64,000 nucleotides of DNA. It comes from Podarcis pityusensis. Taxonomy: Eukaryota. Shown here piece by piece: positions 2,983 to 62,077 of the stretch (the first letter of the stretch is position 1; each line of letters opens with the position of its first letter). The position numbers were made by a program, and so were the translations under genes. The stretch lies in the NCBI GenBank assembly GCA_964106645.2, contig OZ067046.1; one strand, written 5' to 3'. The notes under the pieces are model-generated. The model made no database searches. It had not been told where the DNA came from and saw only the letters and a list, made by a program, of their open reading frames with translations.

Positions 2983-4384
2983 CATGAGCAGAGACACCAT
3001 GGGGTTTTGTTTTAGAGAGAGAAACAAAGTTGGTTCTTTGTTCAGGAGGCTTTGATGGGCCGGGATGTTGCATAGCAGAATTCCATTCTCTTGTTTTGGT
3101 CTACATTTTATTTTTTGATATTTTCTTTTTGATCGGACAAGAATTCACCTTGCAAAAGAACTTACTTTTGGACAAATATGCCCCAAACATCAAGACTAGG
3201 CGGGGAGGAGTATTAAATAACTTGCATACAACCGCTGCAGGTCTCTCTTTGTATTTTCTGTCTGCTGAATAGATTGTGTCTGTGAAATAGGAAGATTTTA
3301 AATGATACTTTATTAATGGACTTGGCATTTGCTTTGGTAAATCATCAGATAATATTTGGGCAAGTAATTTTCTGCCTTTGTTCCAGGTTGTAAACTGGAG
3401 CAAGTAGCAGCCACCTATCTAACTGTAGGGCATGCTGCTTTGAAGGTTATTGAGATAATGGGGAAAGAATGTTTGCTGGCTCTGGGTTGGCAAGTTGCTA
3501 TAATTAATTGGATCAAAAACAATTACAGAAAGATCTGGATAAAAGTAATGACATATGAAAGCTATTAGATCACCCTTTTCCTTTGTCATAACAGATGTAG
3601 AAAAATAATTGAGTACTCTTACAAAACGATTGTGAAACTGGAGAGCCCCATGGGTGGAGTGTTAGATTTGGCTTGGGTTCAAATCCCAACTCAGTTATGG
3701 AATCATTAGCTGGCTTTCGGTACATCATTCAGCCTCACTTTCCCATCTGAAAAATGGGATAACGGTGACCTCCCTTGCTTGTTTTTATGAGGATTAATGA
3801 TAACATTTGGCTAGAATCTACTCTGTGCCTTAGGGAGAGAGTAGGCCTATAAATCTCAGCCAGTGAATAAATCAATATGAACAGGGTTCATTTTCTAGTT
3901 CACTTGGTCTTATAAATAAGACGTTACCTGCGATTAGAAAGGAAACAGAACAAACATTCCTTATTTAAAATCCCTTTTGCATGTTTTCACACATTGCCGT
4001 TCCGTTTCCCTTGCTGGGTCACAGTGAGATTTGCATTAGCAGGGCCTTCTGTCATCACCGTTGAGTGATAACTTGATTGAATTATGTTGACGTTCTCAAG
4101 TGTGAAGGCAGGTGATATGGTCTCATTCTGGCTTTGTCATTCACCCTTCGCAGCGGCACATCTTGCTCCCCCCCCGCCCGCCCAAATGCCTGCTGCGCAC
4201 CACCTTACAAGACAGAGACATGAATCTTAATGTTGCCAAGCACTTTATGTGCCATTAGTATCTGTTGACAGAAGTTCATGAGAGTGCAATGCTATTTTTG
4301 TTGGTCTAGCTGTCGAATTCTCCTGCATCTCAAATCGAAAGGAAATAAGTGTTGTTGTTGTTTTTCCTGTTTCCTCCATTTCAG

Positions 4385-33678: not shown

Positions 33679-33992
33679 ACTTTGCAAGGGCAGAGTCACC
33701 CTGCCTTAAGAGGTGTCTGTAAGCTTTGGGTTCTCTCTGGAACCTCGCGTTGCCATCTTCCACCTCATCTTCTGAATCCTGGCCAAGGGTTGGTCCACCT
33801 TCCACTGAGTGTGGAGACCAGTTGCGTCAGAGGCGGGTGCAAGGAATCTGGCCAGGGTGCGTGGAGCACCAAGAGGCAGAAACCTCCCTGGGTCTCTGGC
33901 CAGTCGAAGTTGGATGGGTGTGGTGATGCTGGCTGGGCTCCCCCGTTCTCCGTTCTGCCTGTAACTCCTTGCTCTCCCCCTTCTCCTTCCAG

Positions 33993-34117
33993 GTCTTGCA
34001 GTAGCTAGTGCGTTGGTGGACATTTCACAACAAATGCCTATTGCCTACAAAGAGAAGTCGGGAGCGGTACGAAGTCGCAAACAGCAGCCTCCAGCCCAGC
34101 CCGGCACCTGTATTTGA
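33993..34117 (+). CDS. ATRN: Attractin terminal coding exon
   Basis: Pyrimidine tract + AG (33991-33992); phase matches previous exon; (G)LAVASALVDISQQMPIAYKEKSGAVRSRKQQPPAQPGTCI then TGA at 34115-34117. Confidence 0.97.
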
Positions 34118-45870: not shown

Positions 45871-47641
45871 CATCTTACAAGGACAGGAAGAAACACCACA
45901 GACAGAATAATTGCCACACACCGGAAGAACAAGGATATAGTTTGAGTTCCTCACTTGAAGTTTTATAAATCATTTAATGGGTCAACACAAATAGAAGTTA
46001 TTAATATTGCAGTTGTTGTATAAGGGATTATTATTATGACCAGAATGTAATTGAAACTAATAAGATTTTGGAATGCAGAAATAAAGAAAATAATCAAATC
46101 TAGCATGCGGCCACTTTAACTAAGTTATATAATTCGGTATTTGGATGATTGGTATTGTATTATAAATTGGTATTGTTATAATGAGGCCATTATTGGACAG
46201 TAATTGGAAACTAATAAAATTTATTCCATTGTGGGCACTACTTTGCGTTTGTGGATCAGTTGTTGGGAATCAAAGCTGGGGCGCATGATGATGCGCTCAG
46301 GTCCCGTTTGTGGGCTTCCTGCAACGAGCATCCCATTGCCTGTTGTGCAAGCAGCATGTTGGACCACATGAGCCTCTGGTCTGACGCAGAGCCTCTTCCT
46401 ATGCACAATCTGATGTGATAAGGGCAGTTCTGGAAGACAACGGGTTCCCCTGGCTCTTTGCATCTCCTCCTTGGATGAGTCAAGCGCTTTTCTGCTTGGC
46501 AGTCTGGCCTCAGGCTACCCTCCCCTGTGAGGTGAACCATTTGTAACTGGTTACATCATAAAATCTATGCCGAAGCAAAGGAGATACTTGAAGTCAGTCT
46601 AGGAATAGGAGCTGGGTGGGGGGAGGTCTGGTTTCTCACCCCCAGAAGGGAAAAAGCAGCAAGTTCCCCCTTTAATTGATTGATTTTGGAGTCCATCAAA
46701 GTTTCCACCGGCTGATTTCTCCAGATAATTTGCCAAATTCGGCCGGGAGGTTAGTTTCTGACCATTAACCTTTCTGCCTCATGGCACCTGAGCATACATT
46801 AACTCCTAAGAAGGGAGCTGAACCGGGTCTCATGGTAACAAATGGTTGTCTTGACTGGAGTGCTCCAGAAAGGAGAAAGAGACCCAAATTGGAAAGTAAA
46901 GTATTACTTTTATTTCTGTCCGAGTTGGGAATCTGCCTTTGATGGGTCCCACTTCAATGGACAGCACATAAAACGGGCTCCCCCCCCCCCCACTCCTGGC
47001 ATACTTATGCATATTTGATTTAGCTTGTTAATGAGGAGAGAGGGAAATGAGTGGCTGGGGAAAAGAGATAATAGCCCATTGTCTCAAACATTACTTTAGC
47101 CCAAGCTTCCTTTATTTCTCAGTTCTCACTGGGCTTTGCAGCTCCCCTGCCTTAGTTGGTCTTTAAGGTGCTACAGGAAGGAATTTTTTTATTTTGACTA
47201 TGGCAGACCAACACGGCTACCCATCTGTAATTTGAGCTGCTTATCGCTCTTCCCAGCCCCCCCCCCCCACATTTCTCTCATCTTTGAGTCCCTCAGTGAC
47301 CTTTGCTGCTCCAAATCCATCACCCAACAGTTCCTGAGAGTAGGGTGGCTCTCATCAAACCTTCAACGTACAAGGCACGTAAAGTACAACTATATTGCCC
47401 AATAATAGCAAATCGACACTCGTTATTTGGCAAAAGGTAGAACTGGCGAAGCTTGGGTTTGCAGTTCTGAGCCCCCGCTTTCAGGGGTGGTGGTGAGGAA
47501 GAAGATTTGTCGGGGTATCGATGCTGTGAGCCCCTCTATCTTATGCTCAGCTTCCATAAACAAAACCGGGTAGCCTAACGACACCACAGTCTCTGCTGAC
47601 CTTCGTTTCAAGAAAACAACCATGGGTAACTCCTGGAGTAA

Positions 47642-57652: not shown

Positions 57653-59885
57653 ATCTAGGCTGTTTCCGGGGTGTGTGAACTGAGCAAACATCAACTTTTA
57701 TTATTTACTTATTTTATTTATTTATTGGATTTATATACGGCCCTTCGTCAAAAGATCTCAGGGTGGTTTGCGGGATAAAAACATGAGATGAAAGCCTCCG
57801 GTGCAGCGAAGAATCGCTTGCCGACGTTGCAAAGGAGCACTTGCAAACATTGCTCTGCAACGCTGCAGAATATGGCTAGGGGATCTCTTTCCACAGAGGA
57901 CCACATGTCATTCTGGAGGGCCACATACCAGTGGCAGGTGGGACCAGAGGGGCAAGAATGAGTGAAAATTGCGAATTTTGTGTTTGTGCAGTAGGCTGGC
58001 TTCTGGAGCTGAGGTTCGTCATCCCAGCTGCAGAATATCTTTAGGATGCGTGTCTCAGACTGCAAGGGGCAGAAAGATACTTCAGGCAGAACCACTCTAT
58101 AGAAATACAGTTCTAGTTCAGAGAACCAGGCAGGGCAGACTTTGGTTTTTCAAACTTTAGCGGTGCCCTTTGCGAGGCCAAAATTGGGAGCCCCCTGCCT
58201 CTTTGCTTTTTGCCCTGCTCAATTCACTACATTATAGTTGTGACGATCTGCGGCACCCCCTAGGCTTGGTGCCCAGTACAGCATAACCAGTTGCGCTGCC
58301 CCTAAATCCATCTCTCTCAAGGAACCAACTAGTGGCCAGTATAGATGAAGATACCTCTAAGTTGCTTCGTAGGTGGATGGGATGGTAATGTACTGGAATG
58401 AGCTCCCTCTGTCACTTCCCCCAAGCTTGATCATCCCTGCCTTTTCTAGCTTTGCCAAATTTGTGTGCTCATGTGCACCACCCAACAAGTTTGCTGGGCA
58501 TGCTGGAATTTTGATGCACGCATGAAGAGGAAAGCATTCCCTTCCGTAAGAACAAACGCCTGCATGTTGAGCCCTGGAGAGCTTTGGAATGTAGGTAGGT
58601 CCATTTCTGTGTGTGTTTTCTTAAAAAATAATCCTGTGCACAAGAAGAGGGAGGCCACATTTCAATACAAGGTTCAGGGCCTTTAAGTCCCTTGACCAAA
58701 AAGCTCTCCATGGGGGCTGACCTCCATCTTGAATTGGGGTCAAAATATTGTGTAGGAATCTAACTATGGTTGACCCACATGAGCCGTGACCATGAAATGG
58801 GAGATGTAACTCATTGCTAGGCAAGTTGGGGTGGTGGAAGGAGTAATTCCCACCCCCACAGACCCAGTTGACACTCTCAGGACCATCGCTTGCTATAAAT
58901 GTTCCCTTGAACCTGTGGATCAGCCATTGCTGATCAGAACCCGCCACAGATGGAATATCCATTACATCCACTCACAACCCAAAACAGTCCTTCTCTGAGA
59001 AGATATAAGTCAAACGTTTGGCTGAGTGGTCAATTCGTGCATCTGGACATCAGTCCTGAAGGTGACACTCTGCCTCTGATTCCAGTGGTTTCTGTTTTCC
59101 GGCAGCAAATGTTTGGATGTGCAAGGTGTGTTGTTTGGGGATCTCAAAATACCAGACGGTTAAAATGTTTCAATATTAACATTTTAAAGACTTCTGTCCT
59201 GCAATCTCTTTCCTGGACCAAATTACAGTGATGGGTTTTCTGCAGTAAGTACCAAACTGTCCTTTGAAAATCACCGAGGAAAGTAAGGGAGAGTCTCTCA
59301 AATATAACTCAGTGGATTGCGTCAGGATTTCAGTGAATCAGCAGCATGAATCGGCCTTCAATACAAGTGTCCAGAAGTGCAATCCAAGCTGAAGAAGCAC
59401 ACACCAGTTGCATGAGAAGATTCCAGGTACATCTACAATTGCTCTCTTGTGGAGTATCAGGTGAGGTGTGGTTTTATCCTTCGAGGTGCTGTGCTGGAAC
59501 CAAGTCAATGCCTTGCTGGTAAGAATGGGTAGTTCAGAAGTTCAGTCCTGCTGGTCCTGTCTAAATTCTCCTCGTGAAGCTCCAAATAAGCATGGATTTT
59601 CAAACCAAAGCCCTCCGCTCAACAGATACAGACCCCATTTCCCACCCAAAAATTGTGGCCAAGGAGAGAGTCAAGATACCCAGACTTGTCTGTCTCATTC
59701 TGAGTCTGGAGACCCAGGTCTCAAGGACAAAGCGCTCAGTTCATCCCTCCCCCTCCCCTTCTTAAAAAAAAAATATGGAGATTGGGTGGTGTCACTACCG
59801 CAAGATGGGAGTATTGGCATGATGAAGCAGTCCAGTTCTTTGACTCAACACATGGGAAGTTGGGGCGATAGCTTACTTCAACCCA

Positions 59886-59935
59886 TTCTTGGTATCTGAA
59901 GAAGTGTGCTTGCACACGAAAGCTCATACCAAGAA
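59886..59935 (+). ncRNA. Minimal type I hammerhead ribozyme motif
   Basis: Stem I TTCTTGGTAT/ATACCAAGAA, core CTGAAGA, stem II GTGTG-cttg-CACAC, GAAA, palindromic AGCT mini stem III, predicted cleavage after C59925. One extra A at 59903. Confidence 0.7.
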
Positions 59936-59985
59936 CTAACTTAGTTGGTCTTAAAGGTGCTACTGGAAGGATTTTTTTATTTTGA
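59893..59985 (+). mobile_element. Penelope-like element pLTR fragment with 10-bp TSD
   Basis: tatctgaagaagtgtgcttgcacacgaaagctcataccaagaactaacttagttggtcttaaaggtgctactgga; TSD CCATTCTTGG at 59883-59892 and 59986-59995. Confidence 0.8.
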
Positions 59986-60387
59986 CCATTCTTGGAAGGT
60001 ATTCCAAGATGGCAGCAAAATCCTAGTGTGCTGGAGATGTTCTTAAGACTGTTTCAGCCTACCAAAGCAGGCAACTTTTACTGACCTGCTAAATATGGGG
60101 GGCAAAAGAAGCTACTGTGAATTATTCCTTGCTGTAACCCATGATGGATCACACGCTTCCTTGCAGGGACTGATTTCTGGGTCCTTCCACAGATGAACAC
60201 ATTGTGGCTCACCAGAAAGGTGTCGACAAACAAGCTGATGAGATGAGTGTCTTTCCTTTCCTCCCGATAACCTTGAAGAGGGAGGGAGCCAGGAGCTGAC
60301 GAGGCCTTTTGCCCCAGCTCCCCGATTCAAAAACAAACAAACGGAGAGCAGTCCGGTCAGGGCGCTTGAGTGTGGGCGCGCTCCAAT

Positions 60388-60531
60388 TCACATGGACGCT
60401 AGGAGGAATGTACTGGTAGAAGTGGAACACCACATCACCAACCAGCCGTTCATGGCCAGTGACAGCGCTGAGCTGGAGCCGTCAGAAGCTAGGTGGGTGG
60501 CATCTTGTAGAAGCTTCTCCTCTGCAGATAC
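60388..60531 (-). CDS. GFRA4: GDNF family receptor alpha-4 terminal coding exon (C-terminal GPI-signal region)
   Basis: Minus-strand acceptor ttttctctttccAG, then VSAEEKLLQDATHLASDGSSSALSLAMNGWLVMWCSTSTSTFLLASM-TGA (144 nt). Resembles the chicken GFRA4 C-terminus as I recall it ([20 protein letters not shown]...LQLW...MM) and fits the known ATRN-GFRA4 convergent synteny. Not present in the ORF track as a single call. Confidence 0.82.
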   Translation of the reverse strand, partial: VSAEEKLLQDATHLASDGSSSALSLAMNGWLVMWCSTSTSTFLLASM

Positions 60532-61323
60532 CTGGAAAGAGAAAACCAGCAAAGGCAGGGCGTTAACACCTGAATGAGTTGTTAGTCTGCGGCTCCATCT
60601 GTGCTATAGCAAGGCCTCCCCCAAAGAATCATGGGAACTGTAGTTTGTTAAGGGCAATGGGCTTGTTAGGAGGCCTCTCTCCCCATAACAGAGCTACAGT
60701 TCCCACAATTCCCTGGGAAGAGAGACTGACTGCTAAACCGCTCCAGGAACTGTACCCAAGTGAAGGGAACAGGGGACTGTGGTTTGATACTGAATCATGG
60801 AACTGTAGAGCTGGAAGGGACTTCAAAGGCCATCTAGTCCAGCCCCTGAAATGCAGGAATAAATGTGCAGTGCATTAATTGTATAGTGTGGATCTGAAGT
60901 GGGTGTATTTGGATTAGGTCAGGAGTGGGAGGGAAGCCGTGTTTGTGGTTCTAGCGCCAGGTAGAGTTCAGGGATGGGGGTCACATGAAAAGGCCTTCTC
61001 TGTGGTGGCGCCCCATCTCCGGAATGACCTCCCCTCTGAGGGTATCAGCTGGCAACCTTGTTATTAGCCTTTTATCCCAGGGAAAGAGTCTGACCAGGCC
61101 TATGGGAGGATGACTTCTTGCTTGTCTGTATGCATGATAGAGGTGTGTAGAAACATTTACATCCACTGGCTCCACCCACTTTTGCCTCTGGCCCCGCCCA
61201 GTAGTGCATGGCACCCACTGGTTGTGTAAAATTCCTGGAGGCAACAGCAGGTGGCGACAGAGCCAATGGTGTGCAGTTCATTCCTTTGCTCCTCTGTGTT
61301 GTGTTTGGAAGGAAACTGGTGGC

Positions 61324-61342
61324 CAGCGCCACCTGCTGGCTA
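61324..61342 (-). promoter_or_regulatory. CTCF consensus motif
   Basis: Minus strand TAGCCAGCAGGTGGCGCTG matches CCASYAGRKGGCRS; partner motif on + strand at 61243-61259. Confidence 0.55.
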
Positions 61343-61530
61343 GCTGTGAGAAAGCAGGCAGGCAGGCGGGAGACGGATGAAGGCAGACAGGGTCCCCATT
61401 TGCCCAGATGAACCAGCCTCCTCTGTCCTCGTCCACTTCTGGGATGTGGCCCCTAAAAGCTTGACAAGAAGGGAATGCGGCCCTCAAAGTCTATCAAAGG
61501 TTTCGTGTCTCTCCCTTACGACAAAAGAAA

Positions 61531-62077
61531 GATTCAGGGAGGTAGATGTGTTGGTCTGACGCAGTCAGTATATATATATTGTCCAGTAGCACCTTAGAGA
61601 CCAACTAAGTTTGTTCTTGGTACAAGCTTTCGTGTTCCAAAGATTATACCAAGAACAAACTTAGTTGGTCTCTAAGGCGCTGTCGTCTAAACCACAGAGC
61701 CTAGGACTTGCCGATCAGAAGTTTGGCGGTTCGAATCCCCGCGACGGGGTGAGCTCCCGTTGCTCGGTCCCTGCTCCTGCCCACCTAGCAGTTCGAAAGC
61801 ACATCAAAGTGTAAGTAGATAAATAGGTACTGCTCTGGCGGGAAGGTAAATGGCGTTTCCGTGCGCTGCTCTGGTTCGCCAGAAGCGGCTTGGTCATGCT
61901 GGCCACATGACCCAGAAAAACTGTCTGCGGACAAACGTCAGCTCCCTCGGCCTATAGAGTGAGATGAGCGTGTGACCCCAGAGTCGTCCGCGACTGGACT
62001 TAACAGTCAGGGGTACCTTTACCTTTACCTTTGAGGTGCTACTGGACAATTATTTTTTTTTTAATATATATTTCAAC
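61531..62077. mobile_element. Inverted Penelope pLTR pair interrupted by a Sauria SINE
   Basis: ttgtccagtagcaccttagagaccaactaagtttgttcttggta (61579-61622) and its reverse complement taccaagaacaaacttagttggtctctaagg..[SINE]..gtgctactggacaa. Confidence 0.78.
61682..62032 (+). mobile_element. Sauria SINE (5'-clipped, variant 3' part)
   Basis: taaaccacagagcctaggacttgccgatcag.. to (ACCTTT)3 tail; flanks aggcgct/aggtgct. Confidence 0.9.

Follow-up and report, generated by a model that had tools for sequence, protein, structure and literature searches.

Genes and insertion at the locus

The window—that is, the whole 64-kb stretch of Podarcis pityusensis DNA that was analyzed—bears two genes pointing toward each other (Table 1). 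On the minus strand, a putative last coding exon of a GDNF-receptor-family gene is found, and exons encoding GDNF domains follow on the same strand 9–37 kb beyond the window. On the plus strand, an ATRN-like last coding exon ends with its stop codon. From short motifs and synteny, we take the minus-strand gene to be GFRA4 and the plus-strand gene to be ATRN. With GFRA-like exons on one strand and an ATRN-like exon on the other, the convergent layout described by an earlier reading of the bare letters (the sequence-only reading) holds in outline.

Between these genes sits a 93-bp insertion, which runs from 3–4 nt before a hammerhead ribozyme core to a T-rich end and is bordered by a 10-nt direct repeat. 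The last G of the left repeat copy also fits the family sequence of the insertion, corresponding to a 1-nt junction microhomology. The ATRN-like stop (around 34117) lies ~25.8 kb upstream of the hammerhead core, with 14 plus-strand AATAAA hexamers in between. Read on the sense strand of the GFRA-like gene, the T-rich stretch of the insertion contains an AATAAA. Past the stop of this gene, it is the first canonical hexamer to occur (at a distance of ~410 nt); the next ones are located at 57697–57721, beginning with that at 57721.

Table 1 Features of the locus and of the parent element (window positions; the last row follows the numbering of copy L147)
Feature	Position	Strand	Remark
ATRN-like last coding exon and stop	33990–34117	+	Based on short motifs; left edge approximate
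TSD, left copy	59883–59892	+	Host DNA; last 7 bases make up most of the stem I 5′ arm
Stem I, 5′ arm	59886–59895	+	6 host-only bases, 1 shared G, 3 element bases
Insertion, 93 bp	59893–59985	+	Front of a Penelope-like (putatively Neptune/Nematis-type) pLTR; 34-nt tail absent
Core C3-U4-G5-A6-N7-G8-A9 (CTGAAGA)	59896–59902	+
Unpaired A between 9 and 10.1	59903	+	Family-wide
Stem II, 5 bp with 4-nt loop	59904–59908 / 59913–59917	+	G10.1–C11.1 present
G12-A13-A14-A15.1 (GAAA)	59918–59921	+
Palindrome AGCT	59921–59924	+	For a dimer-only stem III
C17	59925	+	Predicted cleavage 3′ of C59925; U16.1–H17 at 59924–59925
Stem I, 3′ arm	59926–59935	+	Element sequence
AATAAA on the sense strand of the GFRA-like gene	59976–59981	−	Inside the T-rich stretch of the element
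TSD, right copy	59986–59995	+	Exact 10-nt direct repeat
Putative last coding exon, GDNF-receptor-family gene	60388–60531	−	GPI-signal-like; stop 60388–60390
Parent ORF, copy L147	7403–8668	−	RVT_1 and GIY-YIG

Contigs of four DNA runs (X1, X2, X3, and X11) were aligned to positions 59300–60560. In three of the four runs—X1 and X2 from organism A and X11 from organism D—one contig each shows an empty allele: it joins 59882 to 59986, skips 103 bases with 10 letters being ambiguous, and keeps one copy of the repeat. The contigs of X3 (organism B) do not bridge the site, and a filled junction was not found among the contig rows listed from the four runs. In one X3 contig, the alignment picks up again at 59986 after 8 leading letters that do not align; this hints weakly at the empty allele and was not counted. 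As the empty allele bears a single repeat copy, the direct repeat is a true target-site duplication (TSD), which confirms the 10-bp TSD around a 93-bp insertion proposed earlier. The empty allele also keeps the seven stem bases, and these are hence host DNA that predates the insertion. Its presence in runs of the best-matching organism makes the insertion young and unfixed, if the window stems from organism A, as we infer from the share of its words present in X1 (0.93); the share in X2 is 0.67. An assembly artefact is unlikely given the exact TSD and the family-typical ends.

In addition, the target site forms the left arm of an inverted repeat in the host DNA (59986–60012; 11 pairs, one bulge, and a 4-nt loop) with a predicted DNA fold of −8.7 kcal/mol, a value without shuffle control. 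GGTAT, a common junction motif of the family, occurs 2–3 nt right of the TSD. An alternative reading of the junction is a duplication of 17 nt that includes a slip of 4 nt.

The hammerhead motif and its predicted fold

Direct re-reading of the letters placed the core (59896–59925), the extra A, stem II, the AGCT palindrome, and C59925 exactly where the sequence-only reading had put them. The perfect 10-bp stem I claimed there was likewise recovered: both arms of 10 nt are 100% complementary, and within a 280-nt context the predicted fold contains stems I and II as drawn, with pair probabilities of 0.86–1.0 (0.99 for G59904–C59917, the G10.1–C11.1 pair) except for the outermost pair (0.2). Of the proposed 1-bp stem III, the palindrome is present, but the intramolecular A15.1–U16.1 pair has a probability of 0.0 in the same context. 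The host bases stabilize the predicted monomer fold by ~10 kcal/mol (−17.2 versus −6.8 kcal/mol); they hence strengthen the monomer fold, yet do not provide stem III. The fold stability of the 131-nt stretch is not higher than that of its own shuffles (z = −0.56).

The core motif is not a chance occurrence, as the 64-kb window bears one match versus zero expected from 100 shuffles. A second core on the plus strand of the window is absent even when allowing up to three mismatches. The search with Rfam covariance models suggested alongside the sequence-only reading gave seven weak matches across 58500–61500 at E values up to 10, none of them to a hammerhead family.

A family of Penelope-like stubs

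Copies of the insertion were counted as pattern matches on its own genome of 1.5 Gb, where a 29-nt core pattern finds 7931 exact matches and its backwards control none. The insertion is one of at least 7900 near-identical Penelope-like stubs. For a closer look at their structure, the first 100 matches listed on contig C1 were reduced to 95 distinct copies, which do not represent a random draw. Of these, 32 match the first 78 nt of the window copy exactly. The A following CTGAAGA, which had been regarded as a departure from the canonical core, is present in all copies matched by the core pattern, and an unpaired base between positions 9 and 10.1 is described as a conserved trait of minimal Penelope hammerheads by Cervera and de la Pena (2014, PMC4209133). 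Stem I of the family comprises 4 bp, which is also the commonest length among non-inverted short copies (22 of 49). The center of the stem II loop reads TT in the window copy and in 45 of the 95 copies; AT, found in 46 of them, turns stem II into a perfect 14-nt palindrome.

Upstream, long copies run on into a same-strand ORF that bears RVT_1 and then a C-terminal GIY-YIG. In copy L147, whose ORF is truncated, RVT_1 scores just under the cut-off of 29.6 (29.2 bits, E = 9.1e-7) and GIY-YIG over its cut-off (E = 1.1e-4), with a C-X4-C-X2-C linker located between reverse transcriptase (RT) and endonuclease. This ORF and its linker identify the insertion as the pLTR front of an endonuclease-bearing Penelope-like element. 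Hence, the sequence-only reading had correctly recognized a piece of a Penelope-like pLTR that carries a minimal type I hammerhead, as borne out by the family copies and the parent ORF. The linker, seen in 422 aa of one truncated ORF, points to a Neptune/Nematis-type parent.

The ends of the copies are informative about their formation. At most 12 nt of family sequence upstream of the core are kept by 54 of the 95 copies, with peaks at −4 (16 copies) and −6 (11 copies). Their 3′ ends are located either at the T-rich stretch or at a tail end ~34 nt further; the tail is present in 33 of 95 copies, whose 3′ ends fall ~116 nt past the point where stem II begins. In long copies, a TATA-like box starts 37 nt, and an initiator-like TCAGT covers the positions 9–5 nt, before the core, so that the RNA likely starts there. 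Almost no copies of the family start at the ribozyme cleavage site: the base before the 3′ cleavage product is a purine in 16 copies versus C or T in 7615, and only ~4–5 of the 16 have host flank at the cleavage position. This near-absence argues that the templates were uncleaved RNA, as reported in PMC11167929. Such a reading concerns the templates and says nothing on the ribozyme cutting other molecules.

Several further observations touch the 5′ ends. Copies ending at −6 bear a T at −7 in 10 of 11 cases versus A in most long copies, and copies ending at −4 mostly bear G, then A or T; these patterns are compatible with cap copying, untemplated addition, or slippage on GT. Just upstream of the junction, re-copied pieces of the first 8–15 nt of the template are seen in L010, L023, L066, L074, L076, L079, and L129. 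Such pieces occur in 6 of the 95 sampled copies, with several rounds in L129, and suggest that the RT might re-prime at the front end of the RNA, reminiscent of telomerase translocation. An inverted piece is found near 22 of the 54 short copies. Among the first 100 matches listed on C1, many minus/plus pairs stand 10–1300 bp apart as head-to-head inverted duplications. Copy L067 (C1 ~6,051,900–6,052,150) bears three tandem 74-nt units on one strand, each with a full core. Preceded by an inverted arm, these units make up a small retrozyme-like array that might form a dimer in cis.

Other pieces of the family lie close to the locus. A second copy (47151–47231, plus strand), beginning ~14 nt past the cleavage site, is devoid of the ribozyme and retains the tail, with a short TSD-like repeat on its flanks. 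An older head-to-head family pair (61531–61681) in the GFRA-like gene's last intron, followed by another repeat, is joined inside the ribozyme, which leaves neither arm with a full core. Some 2–3 kb past the right end of the window, two diverged copies in L142 (2342–2515, minus strand, and 3100–3484, plus strand; 85% and 76% to L003) stand head-to-head. Two hairpin-forming repeats at 60612–60724 and 61160–61264, whose weak matches to miRNA families lie far below gathering scores, are likely short inverted-repeat elements.

Origin of the long stem I

The family reads differently upstream of GTAT, and 6–7 of the 10 bases in the 5′ arm thus come from the host. The proposal that the target site itself extends stem I is thereby substantiated, also because the empty allele keeps these bases. 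In the comparison with sister copies, this extension is not shared across the family and fits chance. In the genome, TCTTGGTAT precedes the core in 21 copies, which were assigned by eye: only in the window copy (L044) does the arm lie inside a TSD of at least 10 nt, 16 of the 21 bear inverted element sequence upstream, three (L040, L041, and L051) show a short inverted piece that follows the flank or the TSD, and one (L043) was unassignable. In approximately 6–7 of the 21, the inverted piece is joined at the stem I arms—these arms are hence sometimes used in joining.

The flanking bases were assessed position by position. A non-family base at −5 is found in 1898 copies, 99 of which were fetched from the first 100 listed. 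Here, G is enriched (67 of 99 non-T copies), followed mostly by A or T; it extends stem I by one pair and may be cap-derived or result from re-priming or pairing. At −6, no covariation is apparent: where the arm letter is C and G would pair, the 11 copies show T (8), A (3), and G (0), and where the arm would ask for T, the 43 copies show T (22), A (18), G (2), and C (1). Of the 442 TGGTAT copies listed, the first 100 have A at −7 in 34, T in 30, C in 20, and G in 16 cases. By hand count, 8 of these 30 T-bearing copies have C next, and four of the eight continue with T, all four being inverted-element junctions. Beyond the junction G, arm-complementary flanks are not enriched at −7 and −8 in these first 100 copies. 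Target selection by pairing with the 3′ arm was rejected as a general rule, given the near-random flank and the lack of covariation.

At the junction, TSDs commonly end in G, GG, GT, or GGTA (L022, L062, L072, L080, L088, L100, L105, and L128), which represents ordinary microhomology. The automatic TSD finder overlooks TSDs that have changed internally and picks up chance repeats of 4–8 nt; the two L067 rows in its listing correspond to the tandem and not to a TSD. A TSD covers the junction G in ~5 of the 95 sampled copies, which, applied to the 1898 copies, corresponds to ~100 genome-wide. With a chance of 0.0009–0.002 for a further TTCTT, ~0.1–0.2 target-extended stems are expected per genome versus the one observed, which makes the single case a 10–17% event. 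That the landing site lengthens the stem is likely due to chance, combined with the selection of a good-looking copy.

Comparison with known systems

The comparisons below refer to the accessible parts of the cited sources. With the minimal hammerheads of metazoan Penelope-like elements (PMC4209133), the locus shares the conserved core (C3UGANGA9 ... G12AAA15.1 ... U16.1–H17), the unpaired base between 9 and 10.1, the G10.1–C11.1 pair, and the palindromic 15.2–16.2; helix III is absent or minimal and palindromic (AGCT here), and helix I is short, with 4–5 bp there and 4 bp in the family here. Thousands of solo copies tied to truncated elements are described as well, with reptiles being named and lizards not being named in the part of PMC4209133 at hand. 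Helix II, on the contrary, has 5–6 bp here versus 7–8 bp in the Schistosoma families, and the window copy alone bears a 10-bp helix I by means of host bases; none of the published tested minimal hammerheads in the portions available to us was found to have a 10-bp stem I. Solo minimal hammerheads showed no detectable cleavage in that study, and dimers little.

PAc, a Poseidon element of Anolis carolinensis (Frangieh et al. 2024, PMC11167929), likewise carries its hammerhead at the pLTR–ORF junction. It has two internal RT start sites that bracket a tail of 30–40 nt, with uncleaved RNA as the main template; counted from the beginning of stem II, 111–118 nt there compare with ~116 nt here. Its hammerhead was cleaved only with the element protein, and the activity of this protein needed RNA reaching 172 nt into the ORF, a point the stub in the window stops short of. 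Unlike PAc, the family has no ATG where stem II begins, and its parent ORF bears a CX4CxxC linker. The CX2-5CxxC linker is described for Neptune and Nematis and not for Penelope or Poseidon (PMC8557442); the Poseidon clade was hence rejected as the parent. Neptune and Nematis (Craig et al. 2021, PMC8557442; Arkhipova et al. 2013, PMC3846280) resemble the family in the C-terminal GIY-YIG with two cysteines inside the motif, the linker, inverted 5′-truncated copies, a one-sided tail, TSDs of ~8–10 bp, and a TATA box plus initiator-like motif in the pLTR. Of the traits of endonuclease-bearing Penelope-like elements, the insertion shows a 10-bp TSD, and its family shows a tail in 33 of 95 copies and inverted partners close to 22 of the 54 short ones.

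Animal non-LTR retrozymes (bioRxiv 10.64898/2026.07.22.740005) are also non-coding, carry a type I hammerhead, and derive from Penelope pLTRs. They are, however, tandem arrays in which two or more consecutive units each carry a hammerhead, whereas the window copy is a solo stub; its membership in the retrozymes was rejected, with one core in 64 kb at up to three mismatches. A domesticated host ribozyme was rejected as well, the insertion being unfixed with its empty allele in X1, X2, and X11. A limited search of the open literature found no work on Penelope hammerheads extended by their target site, and none dealing with this lizard family.

How the insertion arose and what it might do

In our view, the locus is very probably a young, unfixed, 5′-short insertion of an abundant Penelope-like retrotransposon with a true 10-bp TSD and the standard hammerhead of its family, which is likely an inactive passenger. 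Its family membership, copy number, TSD, empty allele, and the host origin of 6–7 stem bases are direct observations. The RT/GIY-YIG protein of the element would have nicked the target site, and uncleaved element RNA would have been copied from the proximal internal start site, i.e., the T-rich end, which precedes the tail end by 34 nt. Copying presumably reached the front end of the RNA, likely 4–7 nt before the core and just downstream of the TATA-like box, and the cDNA end might then have been joined to the target via a short G or GG microhomology, as in sister copies. The remaining 4–5 complementary host bases are likely a coincidence that drew notice by giving the motif a well-formed look. 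Efficient cleavage is not expected from a solo copy that lacks stem III, a same-strand partner, and downstream element RNA.

A homology-assisted joining would assign the long stem to the insertion process itself: the nicked top strand ending in TTCTTGG might have annealed to the 3′ arm of stem I in the RNA or in folded-back cDNA, been extended by three bases, and then been joined to the first cDNA via the 4-nt stem I microhomology. Long inverted pieces that end exactly in this arm (L037, L039, and L049), inverted pieces of 9–13 nt between TSD and element (L041 and L051), and the frequent head-to-head pairs among the first 100 matches listed speak for such a route, as does the low chance expectation calculated above. 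The anole protein, moreover, cleaves and extends both strands with homology not being needed (PMC11167929). However, the unenriched flanks at −7 and −8, the zero of 11 matching bases at −6, and the one of 21 arms inside a TSD are at odds with it, and simple joining needs no additional step. We therefore deem this route unlikely, although it is the likeliest of the rivals; even then, the long stem would be a functionless by-product of insertion, which is compatible with a passenger.

If the insertion has any effect at its site, the AATAAA on the minus strand is a more plausible source of it than cleavage; this putative signal, common to the family, would shorten the 3′ UTR of the GFRA-like gene in carriers. 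Its position as the first canonical hexamer after the stop and the U/GU-rich stretch that follows it on the minus strand are in favor of its use, whereas the T-rich stretch is a family trait with nothing site-specific, and an AGTAAA variant at 60077 is nearer to the stop. Altogether, we regard a shortened 3′ UTR as improbable. Far less credible still is the role envisaged by the sequence-only reading, in which the target-stabilized hammerhead would cut RNA running on from ATRN and so protect the convergent gene, presumably GFRA4. The intact core in plus-strand orientation, the high predicted probabilities of stems I and II, and the convergent layout would fit this idea. Yet the 25.8 kb with 14 AATAAA hexamers between the ATRN-like stop and the motif, the zero probability of stem III, and the lack of a full same-strand core in the window, with the two other family pieces being without it, all speak against cutting, and thousands of identical cores exist elsewhere. 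Published solo minimal hammerheads showed no detectable cleavage (PMC4209133). The empty allele in three of the four runs, absent as the insertion is from both runs of organism A and from the related organism D, fits a polymorphic relic—the very outcome the sequence-only reading had set against a functional allele.

Biological meaning

The locus is an ordinary further copy of a known motif type, and as one unfixed copy among thousands it matters little in itself. It has a corrective value, though: in a family this large, a well-formed stem can come from junction microhomology and chance. A bolder idea, which we hold to be rather doubtful, is that stem I doubles as a joining handle that captures complementary targets, with this copy as one case, and that the new AATAAA could alter the 3′ end of the GDNF-receptor transcript. 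If the handle existed, the second target strand could pair with the 3′ arm in uncleaved element RNA, and complementary targets would be captured and leave behind ribozymes with long, host-built stems, of which this allele would be a natural and segregating example. If the AATAAA were used, carriers and noncarriers would provide a natural test of a transposon shortening the 3′ UTR of a receptor gene.

More generally, the ends of this family record how Penelope-like elements copy themselves. Starts at the cleavage site in 16 copies versus 7615, together with over half of the sampled starts a few bases before the core, give genomic support to the uncleaved-template result obtained in vitro.
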